The notes: generated from the sequence alone by a model not told the origin. A stretch of 64,000 nucleotides of DNA from Lachnospiraceae bacterium (GCA_045628945.1 JAZQQG010000046.1:9877-73876); one strand, 5' to 3'. Shown: positions 39,937 to 60,425, counted from the first letter of the stretch. Program-made: numbers and translations.

Positions 39937-40659
39937 TTATAATACTGCATTCAGGAACTGCTTGGTACGCTCGTTCTCCGGGTTCGTAAAGATTTTCTCC
40001 GGAGTGCCCTGCTCTGTAATCTGTCCATCGGACATAAACAGAACTCGATCGGCCACCTCACGGGCAAAGCCCATCTCGTGGGTTACCACAACCATGGTCA
40101 TTCCTTCCCGGGCCAATTCCTTCATAACCTCCAAAACCTCGCCAACCATCTCCGGGTCCAGCGCACTGGTAGGCTCATCGAAGAGCATTACCTTCGGCTT
40201 CAGTGCCAGGCTTCGTACAATGGCAATTCGCTGCTTCTGTCCACCGGACAGAGAGGCGGGATATGCGTTTGCCTTTTCCGTTAGATTTACAAGCTTCAAT
40301 AATCGCATTGCGGTTGCTTCGGCTTCTTCTTTGTCCATAAGCTTCAGCTTTAACGGCGCCATAGTAATATTTTCCATAATGGTCAGATGAGGGAAAAGAT
40401 TAAAATGCTGGAATACCATTCCCATCTGTCGGCGAACCGCATTGATATCCGTGGACTTATCTAGGATATTCGTTCCCTCAAAATAGATCTCGCCCTTCTG
40501 GGGACGCTCCAAGAGGTTCAGACAGCGAAGAAAGGTCGACTTACCGGAACCGGAAGGCCCGATGACTACAACCTTCTCTCCCTCCGCGATATGCTCACTG
40601 ACGTCGTTTAAGACAAGATGATCGCCAAAACTCTTATACAAATGCTCTACTCTAATCAC
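39937..40659 (-). CDS. Polar amino-acid ABC transporter ATP-binding protein (GlnQ-like)
   Basis: Walker A is GPSGSGKST, the signature is LSGGQKQR and Walker B is [11 protein letters not shown]. 240 aa. Confidence 0.95.
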
Positions 40660-41365
40660 TCTGACGCATCCTCCTCTCTAATCTGCTCAACAACGCCGTA
40701 AAGGACATTACAATAATCAGGTACACAAGTGCTACACACAATAACGGCAACAACGCTTCATAGGTATTCCCACGAATGATATCGCCACCGCGGGTCAGCT
40801 CGTTCAGGCCGATGTAACCGCAGACGGAAGTCTCCTTTAAAAGAGCAATGACCTCGTTTACCATAGCCGGCAGCGAATTCTTGATTGCCTGAGGCAGGAT
40901 TACCTTCGTCATGGTCGTGTAATAGTTAAGACCCAGGCTTCGGCCGGCCTCCATCTGGCCCTTGTCCACGGACATGATACCGCCACGGAAAATCTCCGCA
41001 ACGTATGCACCGGAGTTAATACCGAAGGTCAGAATTGCAACCGTAATCTTGTCCGTCACCGTAACAAGCACAACGAAATACATAATCAGCAACTGTACCA
41101 TAACCGGCGTACCACGGATGATTGTCAGATACACCTTGCAGAGCGCATTGCCGATTTTCAGGAACACTCCGCCGATCCCGCGGACCTTCTCCTCTTTTAG
41201 CTGGTCGTAGGTCGTACGGATTACAGCCACCAGGATACCGATCAGAAGACCGATTGCCAATGCGCCTGCCGTAACGATTAACGTATTCACAAGACCCTTG
41301 GTAATGAACTGCCAGCGATCCTTCTCTATGAAGACGAAATGCAGTTTGTCCATAAATTCACTCAT
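40652..41365 (-). CDS. Polar amino-acid ABC transporter permease (HisM/GlnP-like)
   Basis: It has a GTPVMVQLL-type motif and the EAA-loop equivalent [23 protein letters not shown]. Confidence 0.9.
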
Positions 41366-41382
41366 TTTTTAACCCCTTGCAT

Positions 41383-41425
41383 AAAAAAAGAAAAACGCCG
41401 CTTCCCGCGAATCGAAGAAGCGGCG
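41383..41425 (-). terminator. Intra-operon intrinsic terminator between the binding-protein and permease genes
   Basis: Minus-strand RNA is CGCCGCUUC-UUCGAUUCGCGG-GAAGCGGCG followed by UUUUUCUUUUUUU. Confidence 0.65.
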
Positions 41426-41509
41426 CTACTATATTTCATTCTATCTTGCGCGCCATTTCATGTCAAGAAATACTCTCCCGAATGTGCGCAGAACCGTACC
41501 TTTTGCCGA

Positions 41510-42262
41510 TTATTCAGCAGAAATGTACTTGTCGATAATCGCCTGAACGGTACCGTCCTTAATGAGCTCGTCCAGAGCTGCATTGAACTCGTCCAGAAGT
41601 GCCTTGTTGTCCTTACGGATACAAGCTGCGTAATCCTCGGTAACGTACTCGGTATCAAGAATTCTTAAGCCCTCGGTAGCTGCAACGAATGCCTTAGCAG
41701 GCTCGTTGTCGATGATGACTGCATCTACCTTACCCTGAAGCAGAGCCATAACGGCATCATTACCCTTATTGTACTCTTCTACATGATCGGTACCGTAATC
41801 ATCACAAGCGTAGATGTCACCGGTCGTTGCTAACTGAACACCGATTACAACATAGGAAAGATCATCGATGGACTCAATCTCAGACTCCTCGCGAACGATA
41901 ACAACCTGAACACCGGTAGCATAAGAGGTGGAGAAGTTGATGCTCTTCAGACGATCCTCGGTAACGGTCATACCGGCCATACCCAGGTCAGCCTTACCGG
42001 AAGAAACAGCGGTGATGATGGAATCGAATTCCATATCCTGAACCTCAAGCTTAAGACCCATCTTCTCAGCAACTGCTCTACAGATCTCAACGTCGATACC
42101 AACAACCTCACTACCATCGTAATACTCATAGGGAGGGAAATAAGCATTGGTCGCCATGGTGAGAACACCCTTCTTAACCAATTTGCTCTTCTTACCGCAA
42201 CCTGCCAGTAACATGCAAGCTGCCATTACAAAAACCAACAGAATCGAAATGCGCTTTTTCAT
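41510..42262 (-). CDS. Polar amino-acid ABC substrate-binding lipoprotein
   Basis: Lipobox LLAGCGKK, with a type 3 SBP fold (PPYEYYDG...GIDVEI...). The start at 42262 follows an AAGGAG RBS; the track start is 42280. Confidence 0.9.
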   Translation of the reverse strand: MKKRISILLVFVMAACMLLAGCGKKSKLVKKGVLTMATNAYFPPYEYYDGSEVVGIDVEICRAVAEKMGLKLEVQDMEFDSIITAVSSGKADLGMAGMTVTEDRLKSINFSTSYATGVQVVIVREESEIESIDDLSYVVIGVQLATTGDIYACDDYGTDHVEEYNKGNDAVMALLQGKVDAVIIDNEPAKAFVAATEGLRILDTEYVTEDYAACIRKDNKALLDEFNAALDELIKDGTVQAIIDKYISAE

Positions 42263-42346
42263 AATATTCTCCTTTTCCATTTGTGATAAATGAATAAATT
42301 TATATCCTCAAAAATAGCACTTTTTCCAAACGGTGTCAACTATTGC

Positions 42347-42376
42347 TTGCATTTGTGATAGATTTCATGCTATACT
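42347..42376 (+). promoter_or_regulatory. Promoter of the preQ1 riboswitch-queT unit
   Basis: TTGCAT (42347-42352), an 18-nt spacer, then the extended -10 TGcTATACT (42368-42376). Confidence 0.55.
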
Positions 42377-42395
42377 CCGCAGTGCACACCTCGTG

Positions 42396-42440
42396 CTGTG
42401 AGTTCGTAACCATCCTCACAAAAAACAAAACTAAGGAGAA
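42396..42440 (+). promoter_or_regulatory. preQ1-I riboswitch (translational, sequestering the SD)
   Basis: The RNA reads CUGUGAG-UUCGUAACCAUC-CUCACA-AAAAACAAAACUAAGGAG. P1 is GUGAG/CUCAC and the loop contains GUAAC. The A-rich tail ends in CUAAGG, which overlaps the Shine-Dalgarno 8 nt before the queT ATG. This closely parallels the Bacillus and Thermoanaerobacter preQ1-I sequences. Confidence 0.85.
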
Positions 42441-42447
42441 CTTCATT

Positions 42448-42975
42448 ATGAAAAACAATTCCCGCAGCAAGGTACTCTTCCTTGCACAAGCAGGTGTGAT
42501 TGCCGCGCTCTACGTGGTGCTCACCTACTTCATCAACGCATTCAATCTGGCCAGCGGTGCCATTCAGGTGCGTATCTCTGAGATGCTCTGCATTCTCCCC
42601 TTTTTCACTCCCGCTGCAGTACCCGGACTTACCATTGGTTGTCTCATCTCAAACCTGATTACAGGTGGACTCATCTGGGATGTTATTTTCGGCACCATGG
42701 CGACCTTACTCGGTGCAGTCGGAAGCTACCTCTTACGTAAGCACAAGTTCCTGGTAACCCTCCCCCCGGTAATCGCCAATGCAATCATCGTGCCTTTTAT
42801 CCTGTTCTACGGCTATGGATTCCAGTCTGCATGGATTATCAAGGGCGTGGATCTGTCCATCCCCTTCTATGTTGCAACCGTCGGGGCCGGTGAGATTATC
42901 TCCGTGTGCATCCTGGGAAGTATTCTTTTACAGGCATTGTTGCCCTTCCGTAAGCAGATCTTTGGGCAGGAGTAA
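42448..42975 (+). CDS. queT: QueT-family queuosine-precursor transporter (ECF S-component-like)
   Basis: 175 aa with 5-6 TMs. It lies directly behind a preQ1-I riboswitch. The track ORF starts upstream at a TTG at 42343. Confidence 0.8.
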   Translation: MKNNSRSKVLFLAQAGVIAALYVVLTYFINAFNLASGAIQVRISEMLCILPFFTPAAVPGLTIGCLISNLITGGLIWDVIFGTMATLLGAVGSYLLRKHKFLVTLPPVIANAIIVPFILFYGYGFQSAWIIKGVDLSIPFYVATVGAGEIISVCILGSILLQALLPFRKQIFGQE

Positions 42976-43017
42976 GACAAGTAAGTCGTCAAAGGATACC
43001 TTTTAAGAATCAACAAC

Positions 43018-43070
43018 AAAAAGTCTGAGGAATTTGCCTATCTGCAAGGCATTTCCCTCAGACTTTTTTA
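43018..43070. terminator. Bidirectional intrinsic terminator
   Basis: AGTCTGAGG...CCTCAGACT with an inner TGCCT/AGGCA helix. It is flanked by AAAA on the left and TTTTTTATT on the right, between the convergent stops at 42975 (+) and 43091 (-). Confidence 0.75.
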
Positions 43071-43090: not shown

Positions 43091-45628
43091 CTATCGAGAC
43101 TCGTTGATGTAGGTAAAGGCACGGCTCTGAATAATTGCCGCAACATCCTTGGCATTCTTCTGTCCGCCAAAGAAGGCCGCTGCCTCCTCCTTGATGATGT
43201 TAATCAGATCCGTATCCGTATGGTCGATACTGGTAACGCTAATTACGTAGTTGTACAGCTCCTCATACTCCGCATCGGTTAACTGCGAGATAACAATCTC
43301 CTCTCCGCCGATGTAATAGGTATCATCCATGTAGTTCACCGTTCCGTCGTCATCGATCCAGTAGTATTTTTCCTGAGACTTGTCTTTTACAATGCTCCAG
43401 GAACTCTTCAGTACCGGGAAGCTTCCCATTCCTTCCGCAATGGCATCCTGGTAGTCCTTTGTGAAGAAATGACGAATGAACTGCCATGCTCCATCCTTAT
43501 TCTTGGACTGATTCGTGATGGCAAAGGAACCGTTCTCACGGCAGAGAATTGCGCCGTTGGTATCCTTGCTCGGGAAACCTACGAAGCTTACATCCTCACC
43601 GAATTCACCCTGTCTGGTGGAATTGATGTAACGGAAGTTGTAGAGATAAATCGTACGCAGAAGCGCCTTGTTATTACGGTATGCAAGCTCTCTCTCATTC
43701 CAGTAAGCTTCCCAATCCGTATCCTCATCCCATTCCCAGACAACCTCATCCGGGAAACGATTAATTAACTCCAGTAACTCAATGAACTCAGCGGAATCAA
43801 ACTTACACTCACCGCTGGCGTAGTTCACAAACTGTCCGCCGGCCAGATCCATCGCAAGATCCAGAATGTCTTCCTTGGAGGAATCCATCAGCATTACTGC
43901 GTCCGGATACTCTTTTAACAACTGATTCATCTTGGCAACGCTCCAGTCGGAACCGTCACCGACTACGCTGGTCTTACCGATCATGGTACGAACCGTAAAG
44001 GAATCCGTTAACTCATAGAGTTTTCCCTTAATGGTATAAGCCTCCAGGATATTGGGCACAAACGCATCGCGACTAAGCACGGAATCGTTATCAAGGAAGC
44101 TGTACAGATCGGCCAGCAGTCCTTTATTGGCGTAGATGGAAGAATTCATCTGATCACTGAAAAGAATAATATCAGGAATCTTACCGCTAATCAGATCATT
44201 GTGGAACTGTACGGTACCGGAGGTATAGTCATCATTGGAATAGCTGTCATACTGACCGTAATCGGTAAGGGAGATACGATAGGTTCCGTTGGTCTTATTG
44301 AACTCGGTTACGTAATTACGCAACTGGTTATTGGGATAGTAGCATGCAAGATTTAAAATAATCGCATCCTTAACATCCTCGGGATTCACCTTGGTTGCAA
44401 TCACGTAATGATCCCCATAGGTAGTGTAATCATAGTAACAGATTAAGAATTCCTTATCGGAAATTTCAACAAGATAATTCGGAGAGTTAAATGCCGCATC
44501 GGAATCCACGAAATTCATTAACTCCTTCATCTCTCCCGTGTCAAAAGAGAATCCGAAGATGGACATACTATCGACTAAGTACAGATCATAGCTGGTACCG
44601 GGATAAATGGTATAACGATAGGTACTGCCAAAAGGAGTACTCTTTTTCTCGGATAACTGTTTTGCCGCAATATCATAGATATAATACTCCTGCGCGACAT
44701 CCCCCCACTTGCTTAAGCAGAGACGATTCTTCGACATACGATAGAGGTTTCCGTAGTCTGTGCAATCCTTTTCCTCCGCAACGATATTCAGATTCGAATC
44801 AAAAATGTAGAGGCCGTCCATAAGAGCGGCACATCCACCGTCCTCTAAAGCAACCATACCGGCAAGGTAACTGTACTCATCCGGCTTAACGTCGAAGGTA
44901 AACTCTTTAATCAGCTCACCCTGCGCAGAGAAGGCACGAAGATAAGGCGTACTGGAAAACGAATAATTCCCCTCATCATCCCAGGTACTGCTCTCCAACA
45001 TACTTGCCACATAGACCTGACCATTCGCGTCCACATCAAAGTTTCTGGTATACTCGTTCGATTCAACCACAAAAGAGAAGCTCTCGCCGGCAGAACCGTC
45101 CAGATTCGTCCAGGCAATCGTTACGCGCGTCTCATAGGTCCACTCACCTTCATCGTAATAGTCGTCACCATAATCGCCTTCATCGGGAACTCCGTAGCCG
45201 GGATCAATCACAACCGGAGGTTCCATTACGTAATCGTCCGTAATGTCCACCATCTCCAGATCGTCCGTCTCCACAGGGGTCGGCATGGGCACCGGAGAGG
45301 TTACGACCTTGTTTCCGTAGACTACCGACTCTGTCGGAACCTTACAGAAACCGTAGCCTTCGACCAGCTCACCGTTGTGATAGGTCAAATACTCCGTGTT
45401 CATCGCATACATGCGGTTGTTGGCCACAATCATTCTGGAGGGACTGCCTTTGCCGTCATTCTCCATAGGAATATCCTTCAAAGAATAGACCACATCCTTG
45501 TTACGCTTCGAAGAATAAGATACCGCTCCGTCCTTTTTCTTTTTGCCCTGTCCACAGCCGGTCAGCATTCCGACCGCCATGACTAAGGTTAATGCGGTAG
45601 CAATTCCTCTTTTCATGCTACTCTTCAT
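43091..45628 (-). CDS. Giant extracellular solute-binding lipoprotein (N-terminal ~400-aa beta-rich module plus a family-1-like SBP domain)
   Basis: Lipobox LTGCGQG. An acidic D/E/Y-rich segment spans about aa 112-163. The C-terminal half ends EEAAAFFGGQKNAKDVAAIIQSRAFTYINE, as sugar SBPs do. It is a paralogue of 50309..52534. Confidence 0.7.
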   Translation of the reverse strand: MKSSMKRGIATALTLVMAVGMLTGCGQGKKKKDGAVSYSSKRNKDVVYSLKDIPMENDGKGSPSRMIVANNRMYAMNTEYLTYHNGELVEGYGFCKVPTESVVYGNKVVTSPVPMPTPVETDDLEMVDITDDYVMEPPVVIDPGYGVPDEGDYGDDYYDEGEWTYETRVTIAWTNLDGSAGESFSFVVESNEYTRNFDVDANGQVYVASMLESSTWDDEGNYSFSSTPYLRAFSAQGELIKEFTFDVKPDEYSYLAGMVALEDGGCAALMDGLYIFDSNLNIVAEEKDCTDYGNLYRMSKNRLCLSKWGDVAQEYYIYDIAAKQLSEKKSTPFGSTYRYTIYPGTSYDLYLVDSMSIFGFSFDTGEMKELMNFVDSDAAFNSPNYLVEISDKEFLICYYDYTTYGDHYVIATKVNPEDVKDAIILNLACYYPNNQLRNYVTEFNKTNGTYRISLTDYGQYDSYSNDDYTSGTVQFHNDLISGKIPDIILFSDQMNSSIYANKGLLADLYSFLDNDSVLSRDAFVPNILEAYTIKGKLYELTDSFTVRTMIGKTSVVGDGSDWSVAKMNQLLKEYPDAVMLMDSSKEDILDLAMDLAGGQFVNYASGECKFDSAEFIELLELINRFPDEVVWEWDEDTDWEAYWNERELAYRNNKALLRTIYLYNFRYINSTRQGEFGEDVSFVGFPSKDTNGAILCRENGSFAITNQSKNKDGAWQFIRHFFTKDYQDAIAEGMGSFPVLKSSWSIVKDKSQEKYYWIDDDGTVNYMDDTYYIGGEEIVISQLTDAEYEELYNYVISVTSIDHTDTDLINIIKEEAAAFFGGQKNAKDVAAIIQSRAFTYINESR

Positions 45629-46700
45629 TTTCTATTTCCTCCTCTTTTTTCGAGTGCTTGATTTTATGCAATAATGCCGATCCCCACTGACCGATACGAT
45701 CACGAAGGCGCTCTAAGAGCCGTCGGACATCTTCCTTATGCCAGGTTCGATTTCGATAGAGGGCCACAAGGAACCCGATCACAATCACCAAAACCACCAA
45801 CAGACAAAACAGTCTGCTTACCGTAAGCGTCGCCATCGAATCTTCATGCGCTCTCGCTACGTTTTCCCAATAAGGATAGCATACCGGTTCCGTGACCATG
45901 GAGCGCGTTGACCGATTGAAGAACAGCTTTACCATCGGGAAAAGACCATATCGCCCGGTGTTCTGAACGATGGTTGTCTGCCCGAGAACCTTCTTTAACT
46001 GGTTCACCGCGAAATTCTTCACCGGGTTCGGCATGCAGATCTCGTAGGTGGAATACCCGTCAAAGCTACCGTATTTCTGAAGTGCGGACGCCGGCAGAAT
46101 CACCGTCGGGTTCTCGAAGCCTGCAGCGCGTTCCAGCTTGCCGGAGGGACGTTTGATGACGCCCTTGATGATAAAAGGAACCCCACCGATCTCCACGGTC
46201 ATTCCGGCGACTTTTTTTGCGCCGAACAGCTTCCAGGCAACCTCTTCATCGACAACCAGATAATCATCCATCATATCGGAGGGACTAAAGTACGTTCCGT
46301 CCACAAACGAATATTCGTGGAAAAAGAAGAAATCCCCCTTCACGCCGTAAGCCTGAAAACTTCCGTAGGAATGATCATGACGAATGCCCACATTCCCGAT
46401 TCCGCTGTAGCAATCAAGAAAGAGCTTCGCGTTCTCTTTTGCCGGTGCAATCGCCTCCTGCGTCAGGGAATCAATCAGACCGTAATGCGCCGCCAGAATC
46501 GTGTTGTCATCCGCATTCTCTCCATAATGGAAAAAGCAGGAAACCTGCGCATATCCGCCCTTGTTGCTCCATTTCTTCACAACGGACTGATCCCGATAGG
46601 ATGCTATATTCAATTCACTGATCAGGGTGAGCACAAGGTACAGAACCGCGAAAACTATCGCCGTAATCAGTACCGGCCACCGGATTTTCTTTTTTCTCAT
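45618..46700 (-). CDS. Bitopic membrane protein resembling TM1, the periplasmic core domain and TM2 of MacB/FtsX-type permeases (truncated; no full FtsX domain)
   Basis: The N-terminal TM is WPVLITAIVFAVLYLVLTLI. A ~260-aa extracytoplasmic domain follows (VVDEEVAWKLFGAKKVAGMTVEIGGVPFIIKGVIKRP is MacB_PCD-like). There is one C-terminal TM and then a basic/acidic tail. Confidence 0.5.
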   Translation of the reverse strand: MRKKKIRWPVLITAIVFAVLYLVLTLISELNIASYRDQSVVKKWSNKGGYAQVSCFFHYGENADDNTILAAHYGLIDSLTQEAIAPAKENAKLFLDCYSGIGNVGIRHDHSYGSFQAYGVKGDFFFFHEYSFVDGTYFSPSDMMDDYLVVDEEVAWKLFGAKKVAGMTVEIGGVPFIIKGVIKRPSGKLERAAGFENPTVILPASALQKYGSFDGYSTYEICMPNPVKNFAVNQLKKVLGQTTIVQNTGRYGLFPMVKLFFNRSTRSMVTEPVCYPYWENVARAHEDSMATLTVSRLFCLLVVLVIVIGFLVALYRNRTWHKEDVRRLLERLRDRIGQWGSALLHKIKHSKKEEEIENEE

Positions 46701-46703
46701 GAA

Positions 46704-48422
46704 TTAGTTTTCCGTAAGTCTAACCTGCTTGCCGATTCCAATGGGTTTCGAGGACGTCGTAATGACATAATCTCCGTAGTTCAGACCACCGCTGACAGCC
46801 GTCTGGGTATCGTCGCTACCAAGTACCGTTACATCCACGCGGGTTGCAAAGTATCGATTGCCCAGAGGTGAGCTCTTCGAGGTTACCACTAAAACGAACT
46901 TGCCGTCGCGGTCCTCGTGAATTGCAGTATTCGGCACCACATAATCGTAATATGCGTTCTTCTCACCTACCGAGAGCGTCAGCGTATCCCCGGCGGTAGC
47001 GTCGCTTCCGCTGATGGTAAACTCCAGAATCTTATTCTTGGAAGGATTCTGCGGATCGGTCTTGATGGCCGTAAGCTTTGCCTTCAGGTCGTAATAGTAC
47101 CAGGAATTCGAGATGTCCGCGAAATCACCGATGCTGACTCTCTGTGCCTGCTCCTTGGTCACGGTAAACGATAATTTGAACTCATCGTCAGCAGGCTGAA
47201 TCATGCAGACAACCTCCCCTGCATTGACCGTCTGACCTGCATTGTAGTACATATCAATAATACGTCCGGAAATCGGTGCTTCCACCGTGGTTCCTACCGT
47301 CTGGTTCTCCAAATCGGCAATAATTTTCTTCTGCTTCTTAATGGCATCCAGCTGCTCGGTTAAGGAAGTCTCCAGAGCGATTCTTGCCACATAATCATTC
47401 TGGTCTGCCTGCGCCTTTGCAAGACTTGCCTGCGCCTTATCCAGTTCATTGGTGGCATTCAGAATCTTCACACGCATCTCGCTTAACGTAGTGGAGGATA
47501 CCGCCGTTGCCAGTTTATCCGCCAGCGCCTTCTGTGCCGTAGTAAGCTTGGTCTGTGCCGTAGTAACCGCATTGGTCGCTGCGGTCAGATTATCTCTTGC
47601 GGTCACATAGGCATTATAAGCATTCTTGACTGCCGTAAGAGTATCCTGTGCCGCTACAACGGTCGGGTCTGTGGTGTCTCCTCCGGCTGCCGACAATGCT
47701 GCATCGTATGCGGTCTGCGCCTCGGTAACCGTCAAGCCATAGGCATCGTAGGTCGCCTGTGCCGCATCAAAAGCGGTCTGCTTGGGATCCACCTGAGCCT
47801 GCGCAGCATTCAACTCTGCCTGCGCCTTCTCCACAGCCTTCTCCTCCGCAGAGGAATCTACATAGGAAGCCTCCAGCGAAGCCAGTTTCTCATTTAACTC
47901 ATCCAACTTGGACTGCTTCTCGTCAACCTTCTTCTGTGCGGATGCAACGGCATCCATCTTCTTTTCCAGGTTCTTACGATAATCCTTGGCGGAAGTGGTC
48001 TTTCCACCGGTAACCTGCGCATAGATCTCCGTTGTTACCTCCGGAGAGAGAAGTGCCGCATCATAAGCCTTCTGCAGGGACTCTAAAGTCTCCTTGGCTG
48101 CCAACAGCTCCGAGCTGTCGCCGTCTTCCAGGTAGTAGAGAATCTCACCGGCCTCGACAACATCGCCCCTGTGATGTGCCACACGCTCAATTGTACGCGT
48201 CGTTTTTATTTCGACGGAGCGGGGTTCGGTTGCCTCAATGGTTCCGGTTCCGCGAATCTTCGTGGAGATGTTGCCACCCATAATGTACTGGGTTGCCACC
48301 TGCGGTAAGGAATAATTCATAATGGTGTTTGAGAAAAATGTTAACACCAGCATTGTTGCCAGAAAGATAATGGCAATGGTCTTAATCAATTCTTTTTTTC
48401 TTGTCTTGGATCGCTCACTCAT
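46704..48422 (-). CDS. HlyD-family periplasmic adaptor (membrane fusion protein) with a very long Ala/Gln/Thr-rich coiled coil
   Basis: The N-terminal TM is followed by a lipoyl-like hairpin (HRGDVVEAGEILYYLE ... ISGRIIDMYYNAGQTVNAGEVVCMIQP). A coiled coil of about 250 aa and a C-terminal beta-barrel follow. Confidence 0.8.
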   Translation of the reverse strand: MSERSKTRKKELIKTIAIIFLATMLVLTFFSNTIMNYSLPQVATQYIMGGNISTKIRGTGTIEATEPRSVEIKTTRTIERVAHHRGDVVEAGEILYYLEDGDSSELLAAKETLESLQKAYDAALLSPEVTTEIYAQVTGGKTTSAKDYRKNLEKKMDAVASAQKKVDEKQSKLDELNEKLASLEASYVDSSAEEKAVEKAQAELNAAQAQVDPKQTAFDAAQATYDAYGLTVTEAQTAYDAALSAAGGDTTDPTVVAAQDTLTAVKNAYNAYVTARDNLTAATNAVTTAQTKLTTAQKALADKLATAVSSTTLSEMRVKILNATNELDKAQASLAKAQADQNDYVARIALETSLTEQLDAIKKQKKIIADLENQTVGTTVEAPISGRIIDMYYNAGQTVNAGEVVCMIQPADDEFKLSFTVTKEQAQRVSIGDFADISNSWYYYDLKAKLTAIKTDPQNPSKNKILEFTISGSDATAGDTLTLSVGEKNAYYDYVVPNTAIHEDRDGKFVLVVTSKSSPLGNRYFATRVDVTVLGSDDTQTAVSGGLNYGDYVITTSSKPIGIGKQVRLTEN

Positions 48423-48444
48423 GTCGTAATTCCTTCCTCCACAC

Positions 48445-49332
48445 TTAACCCTTAATTCCGCCCTGATAGGTAATGCCCTCTACGAGATAATCCTCGCCGT
48501 AGAAGAACACCAGCAGGGTGGGAATCATATAGATAGTAGCTACTGCAAACGCCAGTCCGACTTCTCCTTCATTAATCTGCGATAAGAAGATGGACAGCGG
48601 ATATTTCTCACTGTTCGTTAACAGAATCAACGGCTGTTCCACCATGTTCCAGTAATCGATGAAGATTAGAATCGCTACGGAACACAAACAGCCCTTACAC
48701 AACGGGAAGCAGATTCTGCGGAAGATCTGCCACTCTCCGGCACCGTCAATCTTCGCCGCCTCGATAAAAGAGGACGGAATCCTTCGCATATACTTCGTAA
48801 GCAGGAACACCGCGAAGGGAGAGAAGATTCCCGGAAGCCAGATGGCCCAGTAGGTGTTGATCAGATGCAGCCGGTTCGATACCAGATAATTCGGTACCAG
48901 GGTTACCTGATAGGGCATCAGCATCAGAATGATGTACAAAAAGAAGATAATCTCCTTCACCTTGCTCCGATATCTCGCAAGCGAATACGATGCAAACATG
49001 GCAACCATCAACTGGAATACCACAATCGGCACCACCAGAATGACGGAGTTCCAGAACTTCAGCAAATACTCGGGGCTCTTAAGCAGCACCGTAATGTACT
49101 GATGGAAGGAAACGATATCCGGCAAAAACTTCAGGTTAACGATATCCGAGATATACACCTTGCCACCTGTACTGTTTGTGGCGAAGACGACGCCGTAGTT
49201 AGCGGAAATCTCAGACTGTGCCATCAACGAATTTGTAATTGTAAGCACGATGGGCGTTACGAAGAGCAATGCCACCATCATCAAGAGGATGAAGACAAGG
49301 GTTCTTCCGATCGCCAGTTTGACTCTCTTCAT
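48445..49332 (-). CDS. Carbohydrate ABC transporter permease (MalG/CUT1-like)
   Basis: Six TMs. The EAA loop is FIEAAKIDGAGEWQIFRRICFPL. Confidence 0.9.
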   Translation of the reverse strand: MKRVKLAIGRTLVFILLMMVALLFVTPIVLTITNSLMAQSEISANYGVVFATNSTGGKVYISDIVNLKFLPDIVSFHQYITVLLKSPEYLLKFWNSVILVVPIVVFQLMVAMFASYSLARYRSKVKEIIFFLYIILMLMPYQVTLVPNYLVSNRLHLINTYWAIWLPGIFSPFAVFLLTKYMRRIPSSFIEAAKIDGAGEWQIFRRICFPLCKGCLCSVAILIFIDYWNMVEQPLILLTNSEKYPLSIFLSQINEGEVGLAFAVATIYMIPTLLVFFYGEDYLVEGITYQGGIKG

Positions 49333-50279
49333 TATTCCTCCACGTCTTTACCGAAATGATTCTCGGTAATAAAGAGAATTCCGATAATGACCACCATAAC
49401 AAGGGACATCAGAATTGCCGCCGCCGACAGCTTCTGATAATCCAGGGATAAGAACGTGTTGTTCATAAAATGCTGTAGCATATAGATACTGCTGAACGGG
49501 TATTTACCGGTAAGCAGATAGATCTCTCGGAACACCTTAAAGGAGTTAATTAAGGACATAATCGTGACAAACAGAATCGTCGGCGAAAGATAGCGAAGCT
49601 TAATCTTGAAGAAGATCTGGAATGCATTCGCACTCTCCAGACGCGCCACCTCGATAATGTCCTGCGGGATATTTGCTAAGGCCGACATGAAAAGAATCAT
49701 GTTATAGCCCAGATTCTTCCATTGGAAAAGAAGCACGATAACGCTCTGTGCCTTCTCGGACTTCAACCAGTCCACCCCCTGGGCTCCCAGATTGGCAAGC
49801 ATGGCATTCACGACACCGTTATTGTGAAACAGCACCTGCCAGATTAACACAATCGAAGCAATGGGCACCATTAACGGACTGAGGAAAAAAGAACGAAGCT
49901 GAGACTTAAACGGGATTTTGCAATCCAGCATTAAGGCTAAAAGCAAAGACAGCACCACCGCAAGCGGTACGGCAATCAGAGAGAACATTCCCGTATTCTT
50001 CGCCGCAATCTGAAACGCCTTATTGTCCAGAATCTTCGTGAAATTCTCCAATCCCACGAACTGATGCGTAATCGGATTATCCACCGTGGAATAATATACA
50101 ACCACGCAGAAGGGCAGGATAAAGAACACCAGAACTCCAAGCAGGCTGGGCGCCAGATATGCCCAGGAGAGAATCCGCTCCTTTACGCTTCTCTTCTCGC
50201 GATACTTACGAAGCTCCTTACGGCTCTTGCCATAGTGCTTATCGATATGCAGTTTTGAATCGACTGCTTTTTTCTTCAT
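49332..50279 (-). CDS. Carbohydrate ABC transporter permease (MalF/CUT1-like)
   Basis: Six TMs. The EAA-loop variant is IEVARLESANAFQIFFKIKLRYLSP. It has a 1-nt overlap with the downstream permease gene. Confidence 0.9.
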   Translation of the reverse strand: MKKKAVDSKLHIDKHYGKSRKELRKYREKRSVKERILSWAYLAPSLLGVLVFFILPFCVVVYYSTVDNPITHQFVGLENFTKILDNKAFQIAAKNTGMFSLIAVPLAVVLSLLLALMLDCKIPFKSQLRSFFLSPLMVPIASIVLIWQVLFHNNGVVNAMLANLGAQGVDWLKSEKAQSVIVLLFQWKNLGYNMILFMSALANIPQDIIEVARLESANAFQIFFKIKLRYLSPTILFVTIMSLINSFKVFREIYLLTGKYPFSSIYMLQHFMNNTFLSLDYQKLSAAAILMSLVMVVIIGILFITENHFGKDVEE

Positions 50280-50308
50280 GGAACCTTCTCGCTGCTAAAA
50301 ATCTATCA

Positions 50309-52534
50309 CTAATAAGTCTCACTGATATACAGACTTACGCGGTTTTGGATAATCGATACGACTTCGTCAACACTCTTCTGTCCTGCAAAGTATGCGCCGG
50401 CCTCTTCCATAATCATTTTCAGAAGTTCCTGATCAAACTCATAAGAAATTGCACGCTCCATAAGACTCAGAATCTCCTGTTTCTCCTCCGACGTCGGAGC
50501 CGAAACCTCGAACACTTTATCATTATAACCCCAGGTCATTACCTCGTCACTGGTACTTACGATACGATAATATTCCTCGAATGCATCCTTCTCGGTAGGG
50601 AATCCATACTGATCCCAGTAGTATTCCTCATTTAACTCAACCGTCATCAGATTACGCAGGAACGTCCAAGCCACATCCGGGTACTTACATTTGGATGTGA
50701 TGGCAACTCCACTTCCGTGACTTCCGGTAAAGATTGCTCCGTCTTCGCTCGTCGGGAATCCGGACAATACCCCCTGCCCATAGAGCATTTTGTACATAGA
50801 ATAGCCACTCCAACCATCCACATACCCATTGCACAGCAAAAGTCGCCCGGCTAACATCTCATCCTCCGCATAATACTGCTCGTCGTAGGTCTCCCAGTAT
50901 TTCTTCAGTTCCTCTATAGAATAGCCGTAATTAGCAAACCGCAAAACATTTTTGAAATCTTCGTTATCCAGATTGACTTTCCCCTGCTCGTAATCAAAGA
51001 AACGAGTACCGGAAGCTGCCAGCGCCATCCTTAAGATTTCTTCTTTGGTTGCAAACGCCATCACCTGCTTACAATCGGAAGAAGTCATATAAGCAAGGGC
51101 CTCTTCTAACGTCAGCTGATTGTCTTCCCCCGCTGCCATGTGGGAGGTATAGTAGAGATTCAAAACACAGGAGGAAGTCATCGCATAGGTCTTACCGTGA
51201 TAGGTATAATCCTGGAAGGCCACCGGATAGTATCGATCCCGATTGATCTGTGCATCCTGTTTCAAATAAGAATCTATGTCTACCAACAACCCTTTATCCG
51301 CAAAGGAATACCAGCCTCCGCTATAGGTTAAATCCGATAGGCTAATCAAATCCGGACAATCCGAAGAGGTAATTGCATTATTGAAATTCATCAACGCAAC
51401 CTCATAATCCTCTGCCGTATTACTGTAATCTACGATTTTAATTCTGTATTCGTCTTGGCTCTTATTGAACTCGACAACCTGTCTTGCCACCGAATCGTTG
51501 GATCCAAAGCATCCCAAAACCAAAGTCTTCGTTTCTTTTACTTCAGCGATAGGAGTCTTAACCAATTCAATCAGCTGCGCCTGCATCCCTCCCATATCGG
51601 AACGCGAACGGGTAATCAGCAGAAGATTCCCGTTATCACGGCAGGACAGACATTCATAGGAATCTGCGATAATATCCACATCGGTCCAGGCCAACAGGTT
51701 CTCGGTCTTCCCCGTGAGCATATCATATCTGTCTACGCCCTTGTCGTTCATCAGGAACATACCGTTCGCTCCGTCGGGTGATATATATTCCGCATTATTC
51801 AATCCGGTGTAGGTCTGGCCAAGTCCTTTTTTGTCCGGGCTTAATTCCGCCGCCTTCAGTTTACTGTCATGGTAAAGCATCATCGGCACGTTGTTGCCAC
51901 CATAGCCTAATGCATTGATCCAACCGTCCTGCTTCACCTCAAAGAGCTTCTGCCCACTATAATCCAACGCCACAATCAGCGTTTCACTTGCTAAAAGATA
52001 AATCGCAGAATCTGCTGCCAGCATTTTAGAAACATAGAAACCCCATTCCAGATCCTGTCGGTCCTCCAGATAGGTAATGTCCGCTACCGTTTCGAACTCG
52101 CCGGTTTCCCCCAGTTTCACCAGGGAATGACCGTTTGCGTCATCCTCAGCATATTGACCTGCAATTCCATACACCGTTCCATCCGGAGACATTGCAAGAC
52201 AATCTAGGGTTTTGCCCTCGATTGAAACGTTCTGAACCTGCTCTTCCATACTCGCTAACTCTAGCGTGCACAGCTCAGGAGTAACAATATAGTCAAACTC
52301 CTCCTCATTCTCGATTACAGAATAGGTGGAAGCAAGATAAGTCAGCTTATCTCCCTGAAAAATGAAATTTGAATTGTAATCTCCGCGAAAAGAATAATCC
52401 AGATACTTGGGCACGTACACAAATTCTTGCTGCGGTTCGGAATTCTCTTTCTTGGTCTTTTTCCCGCAACCGGCAAACAATGCCACAAGCATGGCAAGCA
52501 TTAGGATTACTGCAATCGATTTTCTGCGCTTCAT
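50309..52534 (-). CDS. Giant extracellular solute-binding lipoprotein (N-terminal ~330-aa beta-rich module plus an SBP domain); first gene of the operon
   Basis: Lipobox LFAGCGKK. The C-terminus EEAGAYFAGQKSVDEVVSIIQNRVSLYISE parallels the end of the 43091..45628 protein. Confidence 0.7.
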   Translation of the reverse strand: MKRRKSIAVILMLAMLVALFAGCGKKTKKENSEPQQEFVYVPKYLDYSFRGDYNSNFIFQGDKLTYLASTYSVIENEEEFDYIVTPELCTLELASMEEQVQNVSIEGKTLDCLAMSPDGTVYGIAGQYAEDDANGHSLVKLGETGEFETVADITYLEDRQDLEWGFYVSKMLAADSAIYLLASETLIVALDYSGQKLFEVKQDGWINALGYGGNNVPMMLYHDSKLKAAELSPDKKGLGQTYTGLNNAEYISPDGANGMFLMNDKGVDRYDMLTGKTENLLAWTDVDIIADSYECLSCRDNGNLLLITRSRSDMGGMQAQLIELVKTPIAEVKETKTLVLGCFGSNDSVARQVVEFNKSQDEYRIKIVDYSNTAEDYEVALMNFNNAITSSDCPDLISLSDLTYSGGWYSFADKGLLVDIDSYLKQDAQINRDRYYPVAFQDYTYHGKTYAMTSSCVLNLYYTSHMAAGEDNQLTLEEALAYMTSSDCKQVMAFATKEEILRMALAASGTRFFDYEQGKVNLDNEDFKNVLRFANYGYSIEELKKYWETYDEQYYAEDEMLAGRLLLCNGYVDGWSGYSMYKMLYGQGVLSGFPTSEDGAIFTGSHGSGVAITSKCKYPDVAWTFLRNLMTVELNEEYYWDQYGFPTEKDAFEEYYRIVSTSDEVMTWGYNDKVFEVSAPTSEEKQEILSLMERAISYEFDQELLKMIMEEAGAYFAGQKSVDEVVSIIQNRVSLYISETY

Positions 52535-52785
52535 TCTACACTCCTAACAATAGATACGTATGTACCTATTTCCCCTTATGGTTTTTTCACTAAATACATC
52601 GTAATTCATGCGGTATCAGAATACAATAGCAGGAAACCTTAACAATTCTTAAGAGTTTCTTAAGGGTTGTCGGTACCCGCGGCCTCGGAATCGTGCTATG
52701 ATATTACTCAGAAAGCAATACACTATGAATGCGATGGAGACCGTTTTCCGCATCGATACCTGAAAAAGTCTCCGGGAGGACTACC

Positions 52786-55502: not shown

Positions 55503-56450
55503 CTACTTCACAAAATCCTTCACCTTTGCGTAGATTCCGTCACAATCCAAACCATACTTCTTCACCAACGCAGCAGCCGAACCGGACTCGCCGAACATAT
55601 CATTCATACCGATACGAAGCATCTTGGTCGGGCAATTCTCGGCAAGGCACTCAGCAACCGCACCGCCAAGGCCTCCGATTACGGAATGCTCTTCTACGGT
55701 TACAATCTTACCGGTCTCTTTGGCAGCCTTGATAATCAACTCGTTGTCGAGAGGCTTAATCGTGTGGATATTGATTACGCGAGCACTGATACCGTCCTCT
55801 GCAAGCTTCTCAGCCGCAAGCAGGGATTCGCATACCGTAATACCATTGGCAACGATAGTCACATCCGAACCGTCGCGTAAGGTAATTCCCTTACCAATCT
55901 CAAACTTGTAATCCGGATTATCATTGATTACAGGAACAGCGGCACGACCGAAACGAAGATATACGGGACCGTCGTGCTGAATGGCAGCTTCTACGGCAGC
56001 CTTTGCTTCCACATCATCGGAGGGGCAGATTACTACCATGCCGGGGATAACTCGCATTAAGGCAAGGTCCTCGTTGCACTGATGGCTCGCACCGTCTTCT
56101 CCTACGGTAATACCTGCGTGGGTAGCACCGATCTTAACATTCAGATGAGGATATCCTACGGAGTTACGTACCTGCTCGAAAGCACGTCCGGCAGCGAACA
56201 TGGCAAAAGAGGATACGAAGGGAATCTTACCGGTGGTCGCAAGTCCTGCGGCGATGCCCACCATATTCGCTTCCGCAATACCACAATCGATGTGGCGCTC
56301 CGGGAATGCTTTTTTGAAAATCGAGGTCTTGGTAGCGCCTGCCAGATCGGCATCCAGAACCACAAGGTTCGGATACTTCTCACCCATTGCGACTAAAGCA
56401 TTACCATAGCTCTCTCTGGTTGCAATCTTCTTACTCATATCTATCGACAT
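55503..56450 (-). CDS. tkt: Transketolase, C-terminal (pyrimidine-binding) subunit
   Basis: 315 aa. The DADLAGATKT and GIAEANMVGIAAGLA motifs are present. It overlaps the N-terminal-subunit gene by 10 nt. Confidence 0.93.
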   Translation of the reverse strand: MSIDMSKKIATRESYGNALVAMGEKYPNLVVLDADLAGATKTSIFKKAFPERHIDCGIAEANMVGIAAGLATTGKIPFVSSFAMFAAGRAFEQVRNSVGYPHLNVKIGATHAGITVGEDGASHQCNEDLALMRVIPGMVVICPSDDVEAKAAVEAAIQHDGPVYLRFGRAAVPVINDNPDYKFEIGKGITLRDGSDVTIVANGITVCESLLAAEKLAEDGISARVINIHTIKPLDNELIIKAAKETGKIVTVEEHSVIGGLGGAVAECLAENCPTKMLRIGMNDMFGESGSAAALVKKYGLDCDGIYAKVKDFVK

Positions 56451-57274
56451 AACTCGGCACCTACTTTCTCAAGATCTGCCATAGCAATCTCGTACTGTTC
56501 GTCATTGGGAGCAACACCATGCCAGGAAGCCTGGTTCTCCATAAAGGATACGCCCTTGCCCTTGGTGGTATGCGCGATAATACAGGTCGGCTGACCCTTG
56601 GTCTCCCGCGCTTCCTTGAAGGCTGCACGAATCTCATCAAAATTGTGTCCGTCAATGTTGATTACATGGAAGTTGAATACCTCGAACTTCTTATCAATCG
56701 GATAAGGAGAACATACATCTGCAACATTTCCGTCAATCTGCAGACCGTTGTTATCCACAATCACTACCAGGTTATCCAGCTTACGATGGCCGGCAAACAT
56801 CGCTGCCTCCCATACCTGACCTTCCTGAATCTCACCGTCACCGAGTAAGGTGTAGGTACGATATTCCTTGCCGTCTAACTTCGCACTCAATGCCATGCCG
56901 ACAGCAGCACTGATTCCCTGGCCTAAGGAACCGCTGCTCATATCAACACCGGGAACATGCTGAAGACAGGGATGACCCTGCAGATAGGATCCCAGCTTAC
57001 GAAGCGTTGTAAGATCCTCCACCGGGAAATATCCGCGATGTGCAAGTGCGGAATACAGACCGGGTGCGGTATGACCCTTGGAAAGAACGAAACGGTCACG
57101 CTCGGGAGCCTTCTGATTCTTCGGGTCGATATTCATCTCCTCGAAATAGAGATAGGTAAATAAATCTGCTGCAGACAGAGATCCGCCGGGATGTCCGGCC
57201 TTTGCGCTATGAACAGCGGTAACGATGCCCTTACGAACCTCGTTGGCCTGCTTTTGCAGTTCAAGATTGTTCAT
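56441..57274 (-). CDS. tkt: Transketolase, N-terminal (TPP-binding) subunit
   Basis: 277 aa. AKAGHPGGSLSAADL, SKGHTAPGLY and GDGEIQEGQVWEA form the TPP-binding motif. Confidence 0.93.
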   Translation of the reverse strand: MNNLELQKQANEVRKGIVTAVHSAKAGHPGGSLSAADLFTYLYFEEMNIDPKNQKAPERDRFVLSKGHTAPGLYSALAHRGYFPVEDLTTLRKLGSYLQGHPCLQHVPGVDMSSGSLGQGISAAVGMALSAKLDGKEYRTYTLLGDGEIQEGQVWEAAMFAGHRKLDNLVVIVDNNGLQIDGNVADVCSPYPIDKKFEVFNFHVINIDGHNFDEIRAAFKEARETKGQPTCIIAHTTKGKGVSFMENQASWHGVAPNDEQYEIAMADLEKVGAELCR

Positions 57275-59293: not shown

Positions 59294-60349
59294 CTACTCT
59301 TTTGTATCAAAAACCGTACAGGGAACCGCAGTTGCCTTCAGACCGTATTCTCCGTTGACAATCTTCTCGCCCCACTCCTCGGAAAGTCGGCTTCCGTCCC
59401 ACATGCTGGTCAGGTCCAGATAGGAGACGTTTCCGCCGTTCCCCATCCAGCTCCAGGCCAGATAACCGATTTTTTTCTCCTCGCAGTACTGCATGAGGAA
59501 ATCCTCATCCACATCGCCGTCCGTGTGCTTGTAGCCGAACTCACCGATGCAGACGCATAAGCCGGCCTCCAGAGCATTGTCGATATTCTTCTGAATCGTA
59601 GCGGCATCCTTACCGGCCGTGCCGTACATATGAATCGAGAACATCGTGTTGCCGTCCGGATCTGCCTCAAGAATTGCCGGTCCGCATTCTGCAATACTTT
59701 TGGCCGTCTGCCCCCAGCCGCCGGCATCGATCATAATCGTATTCTTGATTCCGGCCTCACGAAGGCGCTTTACCGCATCGGTATAAGCACTTTCGTAATC
59801 GCTCTGATTGTATCTTCCCTGCCATTCATTGATGATATTCAGAATCGCATAGGCTTCGTTGCCGATTAAGGCTTCCTTAATCTCGATCCAGTAATCCACG
59901 GCCTTTTCGACCATCTCAATCTTATTGGAGCCGGTACCGTCATGCACCTCCAACACCGCAATCATGTTGCGATTGGCACAGGCACTGATCAAAGCGCTGA
60001 CCGCCTTAAGGGAATCCACATTGTACTCTTCTCCATTGGAAAGAACAATACGAATACAGTTGGCACCCGCTTCCTGAATCGCATTCAGCGCCACAGCGGC
60101 CTTATCCTTAAACCAGGTATGCGCATGATTGACTCCGCGCATCACAAAAGGATTGCCGTTGGCATCCAACAACTGATTCCCGCTTACGTGAAAACCGCCG
60201 GTTGCCTCCTCGGTGATTCCGCCGGCTTCCGTCCCCTGCTCGGTTCCCGGCTTCCCGGTATTATTCTGTTTCTTGCCGCCGCAACCAAGCATTCCGACGG
60301 TTAACAGCATCACTAACAGGAATGCGGTAATTTTTTTCGTTCTTTTCAT
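59294..60349 (-). CDS. GH5 beta-mannanase-like lipoprotein
   Basis: Lipobox MLGCGGKK. GFHVSGNQLLDANGNPFVMRGVNHAHTWFKD resembles Bacillus GH5 mannanases. The acid/base motif is NIINEWQG and the nucleophile motif is CIGEFG. The start at 60349 follows GGGAGG; the track start is 60409. Confidence 0.8.
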   Translation of the reverse strand: MKRTKKITAFLLVMLLTVGMLGCGGKKQNNTGKPGTEQGTEAGGITEEATGGFHVSGNQLLDANGNPFVMRGVNHAHTWFKDKAAVALNAIQEAGANCIRIVLSNGEEYNVDSLKAVSALISACANRNMIAVLEVHDGTGSNKIEMVEKAVDYWIEIKEALIGNEAYAILNIINEWQGRYNQSDYESAYTDAVKRLREAGIKNTIMIDAGGWGQTAKSIAECGPAILEADPDGNTMFSIHMYGTAGKDAATIQKNIDNALEAGLCVCIGEFGYKHTDGDVDEDFLMQYCEEKKIGYLAWSWMGNGGNVSYLDLTSMWDGSRLSEEWGEKIVNGEYGLKATAVPCTVFDTKE

Positions 60350-60425
60350 AACACCTCCCGGGGCACTCTGCTTTCTTCGGCCAAGGCCGTCTGCTCCCGC
60401 CCCACTCACTTACCCATATCTTATC

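Follow-up and report, generated by a model that had tools for sequence, protein, structure and literature searches.

Adaptor proteins and MacB ectodomains are textbook exporter parts. Why, then, should genes for both lie in the middle of an operon whose other products resemble an uptake system? The locus that raises this question belongs to a Lachnospiraceae bacterium (GCA_045628945.1, JAZQQG010000046.1:9877-73876); the whole stretch of 64,000 nucleotides (nt) that was analysed is called the window, and positions are counted from its first letter. Six co-directional open reading frames (ORFs) run on the minus strand from 52534 to 43091 (Table 1). In order, they encode a large substrate-binding protein (SBP1), two ATP-binding cassette (ABC) permeases (permF and permG), a HlyD/MacA-type membrane-fusion protein (MFP; the adaptor), a membrane protein with a MacB_PCD domain (the PCD protein) and a second large substrate-binding protein (SBP2). 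An ORF check matched every coordinate, length, strand and gap (-11 to +29 nt) of a preliminary description of the locus. The family assignments made there (efflux-type for the 360-aa and 572-aa proteins, CUT1 for the permeases, SBPs for the two lipoproteins) were upheld by Pfam, NCBIfam, PDB and Foldseek searches.

The best-supported answer is that the module appears to have recruited a MacA/MacB-ectodomain part that lost its own motor. We interpret the six genes as encoding one machine, a type I importer that would take its ATPase from elsewhere and carry a motor-less MacA/MacB-ectodomain superstructure, and we give this interpretation about an even chance of being correct.

Conservation of the interleaved gene order

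At 58 of 80 species-level loci the genes run SBP-permF-permG-HlyD-PCD-SBP, none of the six being disrupted, and most of the remaining 22 are interrupted by contig ends. Across 87 loci, tblastn gave this order on every contig of sufficient reach, except at L035 and L061, where only the upstream SBP is missing. Eleven loci looked up for homologues of 35-41% identity also share it, one clade having an extra upstream SBP. The HlyD-like and PCD genes always lie between permG and the downstream SBP and are never operon-terminal. The preliminary description had made its proposal depend on such a conserved juxtaposition of HlyD and PCD-only genes between CUT1 permeases and a large SBP, and this was seen wherever coverage of a homologous locus was adequate. 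Such an arrangement far exceeds what chance would produce. A chance juxtaposition or a decayed remnant was rejected in view of the 58 complete syntenic loci, the intact ORFs and the strong family motifs.

A scan with a single genome for each GTDB species found relatives of the PCD protein in at least 569 of them. The 80 best genomes are nearly all named Lachnospiraceae, including Acetatifactor, Kineothrix, Blautia and Waltera, and the module appears, so far, almost only in this family. A Lachnospiraceae-type module also occurs in assemblies labelled Muribaculum, Odoribacter splanchnicus and Bacteroidales (L018, L039, L045 and L082), which are probably mis-binned contigs or contaminated assemblies.

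The six genes are best explained as one predicted transcription unit, because the gaps are short (+29, -1, +22, +3 and -11 nt in gene order), a strong terminator stands only after SBP2, and internal sites are not above chance. The start of SBP2 overlaps the end of the PCD gene by 11 nt. The terminator 3' of SBP2 has an RNA fold of -40.3 kcal/mol (z = -6.0 vs shuffles), and the scan found no comparable terminator within the operon, only 15 weak sites against 9.8 +/- 3.5 expected. A promoter is presumably located in the 194-nt region 5' of SBP1, although a consensus scan of that region returned no sigma-70-like site. Riboswitch or leader control was ruled out by an Rfam gathering scan of the whole window, which placed no such element near the operon. 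Two further ideas about the nature of the locus were discarded. The GC content of the operon region (0.46-0.51) is the same as that of the flanks, which speaks against a horizontal transfer island, and the sole PADLOC match to an anti-phage defence system is a coiled-coil artefact (JetC, 4e-5).

Table 1. Location of the operon, its control regions and the exemplary upstream MacB-type systems, with mean pairwise identity among the 58 complete loci
Feature	Sequence	Coordinates	Strand	Description	Mean pairwise identity
SBP1 (upstream SBP)	window	50309..52534	(-)	741 aa lipoprotein; predicted beta-propeller and MalE-like domain	0.38
permF	window	49332..50279	(-)	315 aa; MalF/UgpA/SugA-type type I importer permease, by homology	0.77
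permG	window	48445..49332	(-)	295 aa; MalG/UgpE/SugB-type permease, by homology	0.79
HlyD/MacA-type membrane-fusion protein	window	46704..48422	(-)	572 aa; HlyD_3, HlyD_D23	0.50
MacB-PCD-only membrane protein	window	45618..46700	(-)	360 aa; MacB_PCD	0.55
SBP2 (downstream SBP)	window	43091..45628	(-)	845 aa lipoprotein; SBP_bac_8, SBP_bac_1	0.40
Predicted intrinsic terminator closing the operon	window	43011..43069	(-)	long G+C-rich hairpin, then U run
Upstream intergenic region	window	52535..52728	(-)	194 nt, common to divergent amidohydrolase gene; AGGAG before ATG
Upstream MacB-type ABC	L001	1-3035
Upstream MacB-type ABC	L035	2174-6243
Upstream MacB-type ABC	L080	2-3951

An importer core with enlarged receptors

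Both permeases match BPD_transp_1 (PF00528) above the Pfam cut-off of 26.4 bits (permF 48 bits, permG 62 bits). An EAA loop lies at residues 191-211 of permG (EAAKIDGAG...) and an EAA-like loop at residues 210-233 of permF (EVARLESAN...). The nearest NCBIfam models are UgpA/E, GlcT/U and MalF/G (UgpA, GlcT and MalF in the case of permF), all below their equivalog cut-offs. In a PDB search the nearest solved structures of the pair are SugA/SugB, MalF/MalG and AlgM1/M2, with SugA (7cad, 8ja7), MalF and AlgM1 as the nearest chains for permF. The permF proteins of homologous loci are 63-81% identical to that of the window. Two features that define CUT1 membership, a BPD_transp_1 permease pair with EAA loops and MalE-like (SBP_bac_1/8) receptors, are present. 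Homology identifies the permeases and receptors as the core of a type I (CUT1) ABC importer, for which transport is predicted.

SBP1 and SBP2 begin with signal peptides whose terminal lipoboxes predict lipidation (LFAGC with Cys23 and MLTGC with Cys25 respectively), and a comparable box (...AACG/TACG/SGCG) is found in most upstream and downstream SBP homologues. The two receptors are paralogues, with 28% identity over 560 aa (E = 1e-42). By tblastn, the upstream and downstream SBPs of other loci each resemble their own counterpart in the window most, and the two are therefore old paralogues kept side by side. About 11 loci carry one or two extra upstream SBP paralogues, which gives up to 3-4 receptors. 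Pfam matches to SBP_bac_1/8 are confined to the C-terminal halves. Both models are above their cut-offs in SBP2 (SBP_bac_8 52.6 bits, SBP_bac_1 36 bits), whereas SBP_bac_1 reaches 25.7 bits in SBP1, just under the cut-off of 26. The MalE-like domains span residues ~336-741 of SBP1 (window 50312-51529) and ~435-845 of SBP2 (window 43094-44326).

The extra size of both proteins is assigned to an N-terminal beta-propeller of 300-400 aa, predicted in SBP1 from a shallow model and missed in the preliminary description. In this AlphaFold2 model (mean confidence, pLDDT, 75; 9-sequence alignment), ~28 strands precede an alpha/beta SBP fold and occupy residues 38-328, which places the propeller at ~38-328 (window 51551-52423). 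The N-terminal ~400 aa of SBP2 form a beta-rich domain into which an acidic segment of low complexity is inserted. The fold search with full-length SBP1 was swamped by fusions to maltose-binding protein, and the N-domain was therefore assigned by profile search. A profile of 10 N-domains matched PQQ-propeller proteins and designed propellers with E-values of 1e-10 to 1e-5 over one or two blades only, the best match being to PQQ-type blades (7dxn, E = 1e-10). No Pfam family covers the receptor N-domain; matches to SGL, Reg_prop and SBBP are sub-threshold. Word-indexed searches for SBP relatives gave at least 5 and at least 8 proteins, and the alignment is shallow in part because the receptors diverge fast.

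The ligand of these receptors is probably carbohydrate-like, judging by their fold relatives. The top Foldseek matches of SBP1 are CbpC (7x0o, E = 1e-16), Lmo0181 and a beta-1,2-glucooligosaccharide binding protein, with MalE also among them, and SBP2 matches CbpC (7x0o, E = 2e-10). SBP2 also has a weak match, far below the cut-off, to the N-acetylglucosamine/chitobiose receptor NgcE (E = 3.7e-4). The flanks of the 11 look-up loci differ and are mostly housekeeping genes (transketolase, enolase, iPGM, EF-Ts, SecDF and aspartyl-tRNA synthetase), and no gene for a glycosidase, carbohydrate-binding module (CBM) protein, regulator, ATPase, catabolic enzyme or hydrolase is a conserved neighbour in them. 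The lack of an adjoining conserved glycosidase, CBM protein or regulator argues against a classical polysaccharide-utilization locus. Housekeeping surroundings without catabolic genes point to a constitutive core role rather than to an inducible glycan-utilization locus.

The operon resembles known CUT1 importers (MalEFGK2, LpqY-SugABC and AlgM1M2SS-AlgQ) in its two BPD_transp_1 permeases with EAA loops and in its MalE-like extracytoplasmic receptors, lipid-anchored as in Gram-positives. It differs from them in having no ATPase gene and no linked regulator or glycosidase, in the predicted propeller at the N-terminus of each receptor, and in the MFP and MacB-PCD genes interleaved with those of the importer.

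A MacB ectodomain without a motor

The PCD protein matches MacB_PCD (PF12704) with 40.7 bits against a cut-off of 27. Its AlphaFold2 model (pLDDT 87) consists of a first transmembrane (TM) helix at residues 4-34, an alpha/beta ectodomain at ~45-270, a second TM helix at 277-316 and a cytoplasmic helix at 322-359. Foldseek matched it to MacB (5gko, 5nik), Spr0695 (5xu1) and the YknZ ectodomain (5f9q) with E-values of about 1e-9, and further to YbbP, HrtB and LolC/E, the overall range being 1e-9 to 1e-4. The model thus identifies a genuine Porter/Sabre ectodomain carried on two predicted stalk helices. The FtsX domain (TM3-4), the coupling region and the nucleotide-binding domain (NBD) of a complete transporter are absent: there is no FtsX match in Pfam and the chain ends ~40 residues past TM2. 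The protein is not a MacB transporter but a PCD-only derivative. The 'truncated MacB-like bitopic protein' of the preliminary description was hence correctly seen as MacB-like and truncated, but it has two membrane helices and is not bitopic.

An alignment of 26 homologues revealed the family motifs GGDFFxFH, PNP, RSM and YPYWEN, the last being a conserved juxtamembrane motif. Just after TM2, on the cytoplasmic side, the PCD-only proteins also conserve a basic/aromatic motif, W-K/R-x-R-x-W-T-x-K-D, at the position where MacB has its major coupling helix. No curated family describes the PCD-only protein, nothing scoring above an NCBIfam cut-off, and its relatives are generically named 'ABC transporter permease' in the sources. 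Word-indexed searching found 418 homologues. Among the 120 listed, most are ~340-400 aa long and a few reach 553 aa, MacB_PCD is the sole domain, and the named ones are from Lachnospiraceae or Bacillota. A profile search of 1.84 billion representatives returned 650 clusters at E < 1e-30, and the best 150 of these are again mostly 340-400 aa, with some of 400-730 aa owing to insertions or tails and three of more than 1000 aa. In one homologue (P0228, 711 aa) the ectodomain is enlarged by a long acidic segment of low complexity; another (P0129, 509 aa) has a similar cytoplasmic tail.

A membrane-fusion protein without an exporter in its operon

The adaptor is built from a TM helix (residues 10-36), a split lipoyl domain, a helical insert (100-372) and a beta-barrel plus C-terminal domain (373-572). 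Pfam matches it to HlyD_3 (42.4 bits, cut-off 22.2) and HlyD_D23 (31.3 bits, cut-off 30), whereas its score against the RND_mfp model TIGR01730 in NCBIfam (73 bits) stays under the cut-off of 94.9. A profile of 14 homologues searched against the PDB found HlyD (8dck, E = 5e-12; 5c22), MacA (4dk0, 5nik) and EmrA. An adaptor of this kind is expected to have an ABC, RND or MFS exporter as partner, but across the 58 complete loci the only transporter genes of the unit are importer-type. By domain content, the protein is thus classed as an MFP that appears to lack an exporter partner.

The insert of ~270 residues (window 47307-48125) is rich in Ala, Thr and Gln. Its strongest helix break, GGDTTDP at residues 247-253, lies near the middle, and in 75 sequences (the window protein and 74 homologues) the strongest break has a median fractional position of 0.45. 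This is consistent with a hairpin, the arms of which, at ~120-145 residues, would reach ~18-21 nm if they were continuous helices. Insert length is hypervariable, ranging from 193 to 389 residues across homologues. In the adaptor of L041 (7977-9992), ~90 additional residues rich in Pro and Ser interrupt the middle of the insert, at the expected site of the hairpin tip. Identity to the window protein is 65% in the N-terminus and TM helix, 24% in the insert and 63% in the C-terminal domain, and the TM and juxtamembrane stretch (LTFFSNTIMNYSLPEVATQY) is almost invariant. This regional gradient within the adaptor parallels the one between the proteins of the module, which falls from the permeases (0.77-0.79) through the PCD protein (0.55) and the adaptor (0.50) to the SBPs (~0.39).

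The preliminary description had reported no Walker A motif in any of the six products. Indeed, no ATPase is encoded, and neither an LSGGQ motif nor an NBD was found among the operon products. A literal Walker-A-like string, AQVTGGKT, does occur at residues 135-142 of the HlyD-like protein, inside the coiled coil, and was dismissed as a chance match.

One system or two?

Homologues exist in which a MacB_PCD domain is followed by a propeller-SBP in a single chain: three protein clusters, represented by P0134 (1089 aa), P0151 (1131 aa) and P0249 (1228 aa), and a protein of locus L078. In P0151 the lipobox Cys is gone and a plain hydrophobic TM anchor remains. The replacement of the lipobox by a TM anchor argues that this is a real three-helix fusion and not the result of a missed stop codon. 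The predicted topology of the fusions is coherent, with the C-terminus of the PCD part in the cytoplasm and the signal or anchor helix of the SBP leading the chain back out. Such fusion proteins support a physical link between the efflux-type parts and a binding protein, and we regard them as Rosetta-stone evidence suggesting joint action of the PCD protein with the downstream receptor.

The operon might alternatively hold two systems on one transcript, a CUT1 importer with two receptors and a MacAB-like remnant that serves a full MacB-type ABC transporter whose genes lie elsewhere. In Gram-positive bacteria, MacB homologues are the normal partners of adaptors (PMC5985334). Moreover, ~17 of ~85 distinct loci encode a MacB-type ATPase and a ~1100-aa FtsX-PCD-FtsX permease immediately upstream of the module, in the same orientation (examples in Table 1), which keeps alive the idea that the adaptor and PCD protein serve a separate MacB pump. 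In L035, the MacB-type ABC replaces the upstream SBP and its permease, of the ~1100-aa class, has a long coiled-coil insert. However, this upstream system looks clade-specific; the window and most loci are without a nearby MacB-type ABC, and the ~1100-aa permeases have a PCD of their own. The HlyD and PCD genes, moreover, are interleaved in every case and do not trail at the operon end, conservation of the adaptor tracks that of the CUT1 permeases, and the PCD-SBP fusions occur. We consider two separate systems unlikely.

How the module might be energized is a related question. Neither the operon and its homologous loci nor the rest of the 64-kb window yielded a MalK/MsmK-type ATPase gene, and no locus has an ABC ATPase gene within the module. 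The preliminary description drew attention to the missing ATPase. In Firmicutes, CUT1 systems commonly share an MsmK/MsmX-type ATPase encoded elsewhere, so an operon without an ATPase gene is ordinary and not in itself anomalous. Two genes in the window, at 39937-40659 (GlnQ-type, part of the adjacent polar amino-acid transporter) and at 5095-5904, encode ABC ATPases. Both were rejected as the ATPase of the module, since neither is MalK-like in context.

A model of the machine and its alternatives

In the single machine that we favour, ATP hydrolysis would be provided by a shared MsmK/MalK-type ATPase encoded elsewhere. The PCD protein would form a dimer beneath a ring of adaptor subunits, after the pattern of MacA6:MacB2, and the TM helix and C-terminal membrane-proximal domain of the adaptor would dock on the conserved permeases and on the PCD protein. 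The ~270-residue insert would form a hairpin that projects into or through the wall. The superstructure may hold or feed the propeller-SBP receptors, so that a ligand caught at or within the wall, probably carbohydrate-like, reaches the importer. The preliminary description had proposed that the adaptor and ectodomain could scaffold or gate the two binding proteins, or that the system might process or capture a polymer. In MacAB, the membrane-proximal and beta-barrel domains of the adaptor touch the MacB ectodomain, the hairpin does not, and the adaptor TM helix is required for stimulation of the transporter (PMC5985334). Taken with a conserved TM helix and C-terminus and a variable coil, these contacts suggest that the adaptor docks close to the membrane and that its distal part, like the receptors, points outwards.

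Several points weigh against this interpretation. All contacts among the parts are deduced from conservation, fusions and analogy. The hairpin topology is taken from MFP homology and from the Gly/Pro break near the midpoint (median 0.45), and the SBP1 model has a pLDDT of 75 from nine sequences. It is the fold relatives of the SBPs, and nothing else, that suggest a carbohydrate substrate, no glycosidase or regulator gene being conserved nearby. The only ABC ATPases in the window (39937-40659 and 5095-5904) belong to other systems. Finally, the peptidoglycan mesh passes oligosaccharides freely, and the need for a conduit is not obvious.

A further proposal goes beyond importers altogether: in a mechanotransmission machine, cycling of the MalFG-like permeases and their ATPase would drive the PCD and adaptor tube to expel or extract a molecule from the membrane surface or wall zone, with the SBP-like lipoproteins as donors or acceptors. 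No role other than import is known to us for BPD_transp_1 permeases with EAA loops and MalE-like receptors. Coupling in MacB, moreover, needs the coupling helix and TM3-4, which the PCD protein lacks. On the other hand, the PCD protein keeps both stalk helices and the YPYWEN motif, the neighbourhoods are housekeeping without catabolic genes, and the PCD domains of every characterized relative work outside the membrane and not in transport across it (PMC5985334). On balance this machine seems to us improbable, to the same degree as two separate systems.

That the module is a wall-remodelling controller of FtsEX type is very improbable. In this scheme the PCD ectodomain would bind the long coiled-coil protein and control a wall hydrolase, and the importer would salvage the wall fragments set free. 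In its favour, FtsX ectodomains bind the coiled-coil partners EnvC and PcsB (PMC7668044; PMC5768738), SBP2 has its sub-threshold match to NgcE and the genomic context is housekeeping. Against it, Pfam and NCBIfam reveal no hydrolase, LytM, CHAP or amidase domain in the six proteins, lipoyl and barrel domains mark the coiled-coil protein as a true MFP, and no hydrolase gene is conserved beside the module.

The single-machine interpretation has a bolder version. Here the module would represent a hybrid ABC class. Packed against the permeases, the TM helix of the adaptor and the stalk helices of the PCD protein would transmit the ATP-driven conformational cycle of a type I importer mechanically to a MacB ectodomain that has no motor and to a very long tube of adaptors. 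Such a machine would serve wall-spanning uptake in monoderms through exchangeable, fast-evolving propeller-SBP surface receptors. We offer this as a doubtful conjecture, to be rated only slightly above the idea of two separate systems.

Relation to characterized systems

The preliminary description considered the role of an adaptor in a monoderm cell to be unclear. This is not wholly so, given the characterized Gram-positive MacAB-like pumps YknWXYZ and Spr0693-0695, in which six adaptor subunits form a tube that crosses the inner wall zone (PMC5768738, PMC5985334). With the Spr0693 tube of Streptococcus pneumoniae the assembly measures 154 A, in keeping with the depth of that zone, and the alpha-barrel is 56 A high (PMC5768738). 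Like these pumps (Spr0693-0694-0695 and YknWXYZ of Bacillus), the module combines, in a monoderm, a membrane-anchored MFP with a Porter/Sabre ectodomain between stalk helices; the PCD protein matches Spr0695 and the YknZ ectodomain in Foldseek, and for the adaptor, too, a tube through the wall zone is expected (PMC5768738). Unlike theirs, the PCD protein is without TM3-4 (FtsX), the coupling helix and an NBD partner. The 56 A barrel of Spr0693 compares with an insert of ~270 residues here (193-389 across homologues), and the partner of the pumps is an exporter whereas that of the module is an importer.

MacAB-TolC with the lipoprotein YbjP (9qgy) and LolCDE-LolA, both among the structural matches of the PCD protein, are precedents for a type VII ectodomain with a lipoprotein or carrier as its partner. 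They differ in being complete ATP-driven type VII transporters of diderms, whereas the lipoproteins of the module are SBP-type receptors, one of which is sometimes fused to the PCD. With FtsEX and EnvC/PcsB the module shares a PCD-type ectodomain and a long coiled-coil extracytoplasmic protein, but here the latter is an MFP without a hydrolase or activator domain, and neither FtsE nor the FtsX TM3-4 is present.

In the open-access full-text literature we found no description of an MFP or MacB-PCD protein in an importer operon, a scope that does not amount to proof of absence. The parts are all of known kinds, and it is their combination and the motor-less MacB ectodomain that are undescribed in the open-access literature searched.

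Genomic surroundings

Split genes for the N- and C-terminal parts of transketolase lie upstream of the module both in the window (55503-57274, minus strand) and in L004 (2143-3914), a locus with a 41% identical PCD protein and local synteny to the window; the window has an amidohydrolase gene and a YjbR/MGMT fusion gene inserted. On the other side, a convergent QueT-family transporter gene (42343-42975, plus strand) may share the terminator of the operon, which could act in that direction too by virtue of an A run on the other side of the hairpin. The Rfam gathering scan gave no preQ1 riboswitch before QueT. Its sole match above gathering in the window is a skipping-rope RNA (RF02924, 36242-36319, plus strand; 61 bits, E = 3e-12). 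Downstream of the operon, a polar amino-acid ABC importer (SBP, permease and GlnQ-type ATPase) occupies 39937-42280 on the minus strand.

Two GH5 cellulase genes, one with a CBM2 domain, are found at 14307-16076 and 59294-60409 (both minus strand), and 12527-14293 encodes a CotH-family protein with chitobiase C-terminal and Fn3-associated domains. The GH5 and CotH genes hint at a fibre-degrading lifestyle, though they are unlinked to the module in other genomes. Between ~20000 and 26000, the GC content is low (0.385-0.396 vs ~0.48 around) and MBOAT, FkbH-like and short-chain dehydrogenase genes are present; this region may be an acquired surface-polymer modification cluster.

Significance

If the interpretation as one machine is correct, a motor-less MacB ectodomain with its adaptor in an importer would extend the range of such modules. 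The module offers a tangible case in which to ask what adaptors do where there is no outer membrane, and cultured carriers exist (Acetatifactor muris, A. aquisgranensis and Waltera intestinalis). It has been kept across hundreds of species in one dominant gut bacterial family. The permeases hardly vary, whereas the receptors and the hairpin evolve fast, a gradient suggestive of a structure exposed at the surface of these abundant gut commensals and possibly under selection by host or phage.

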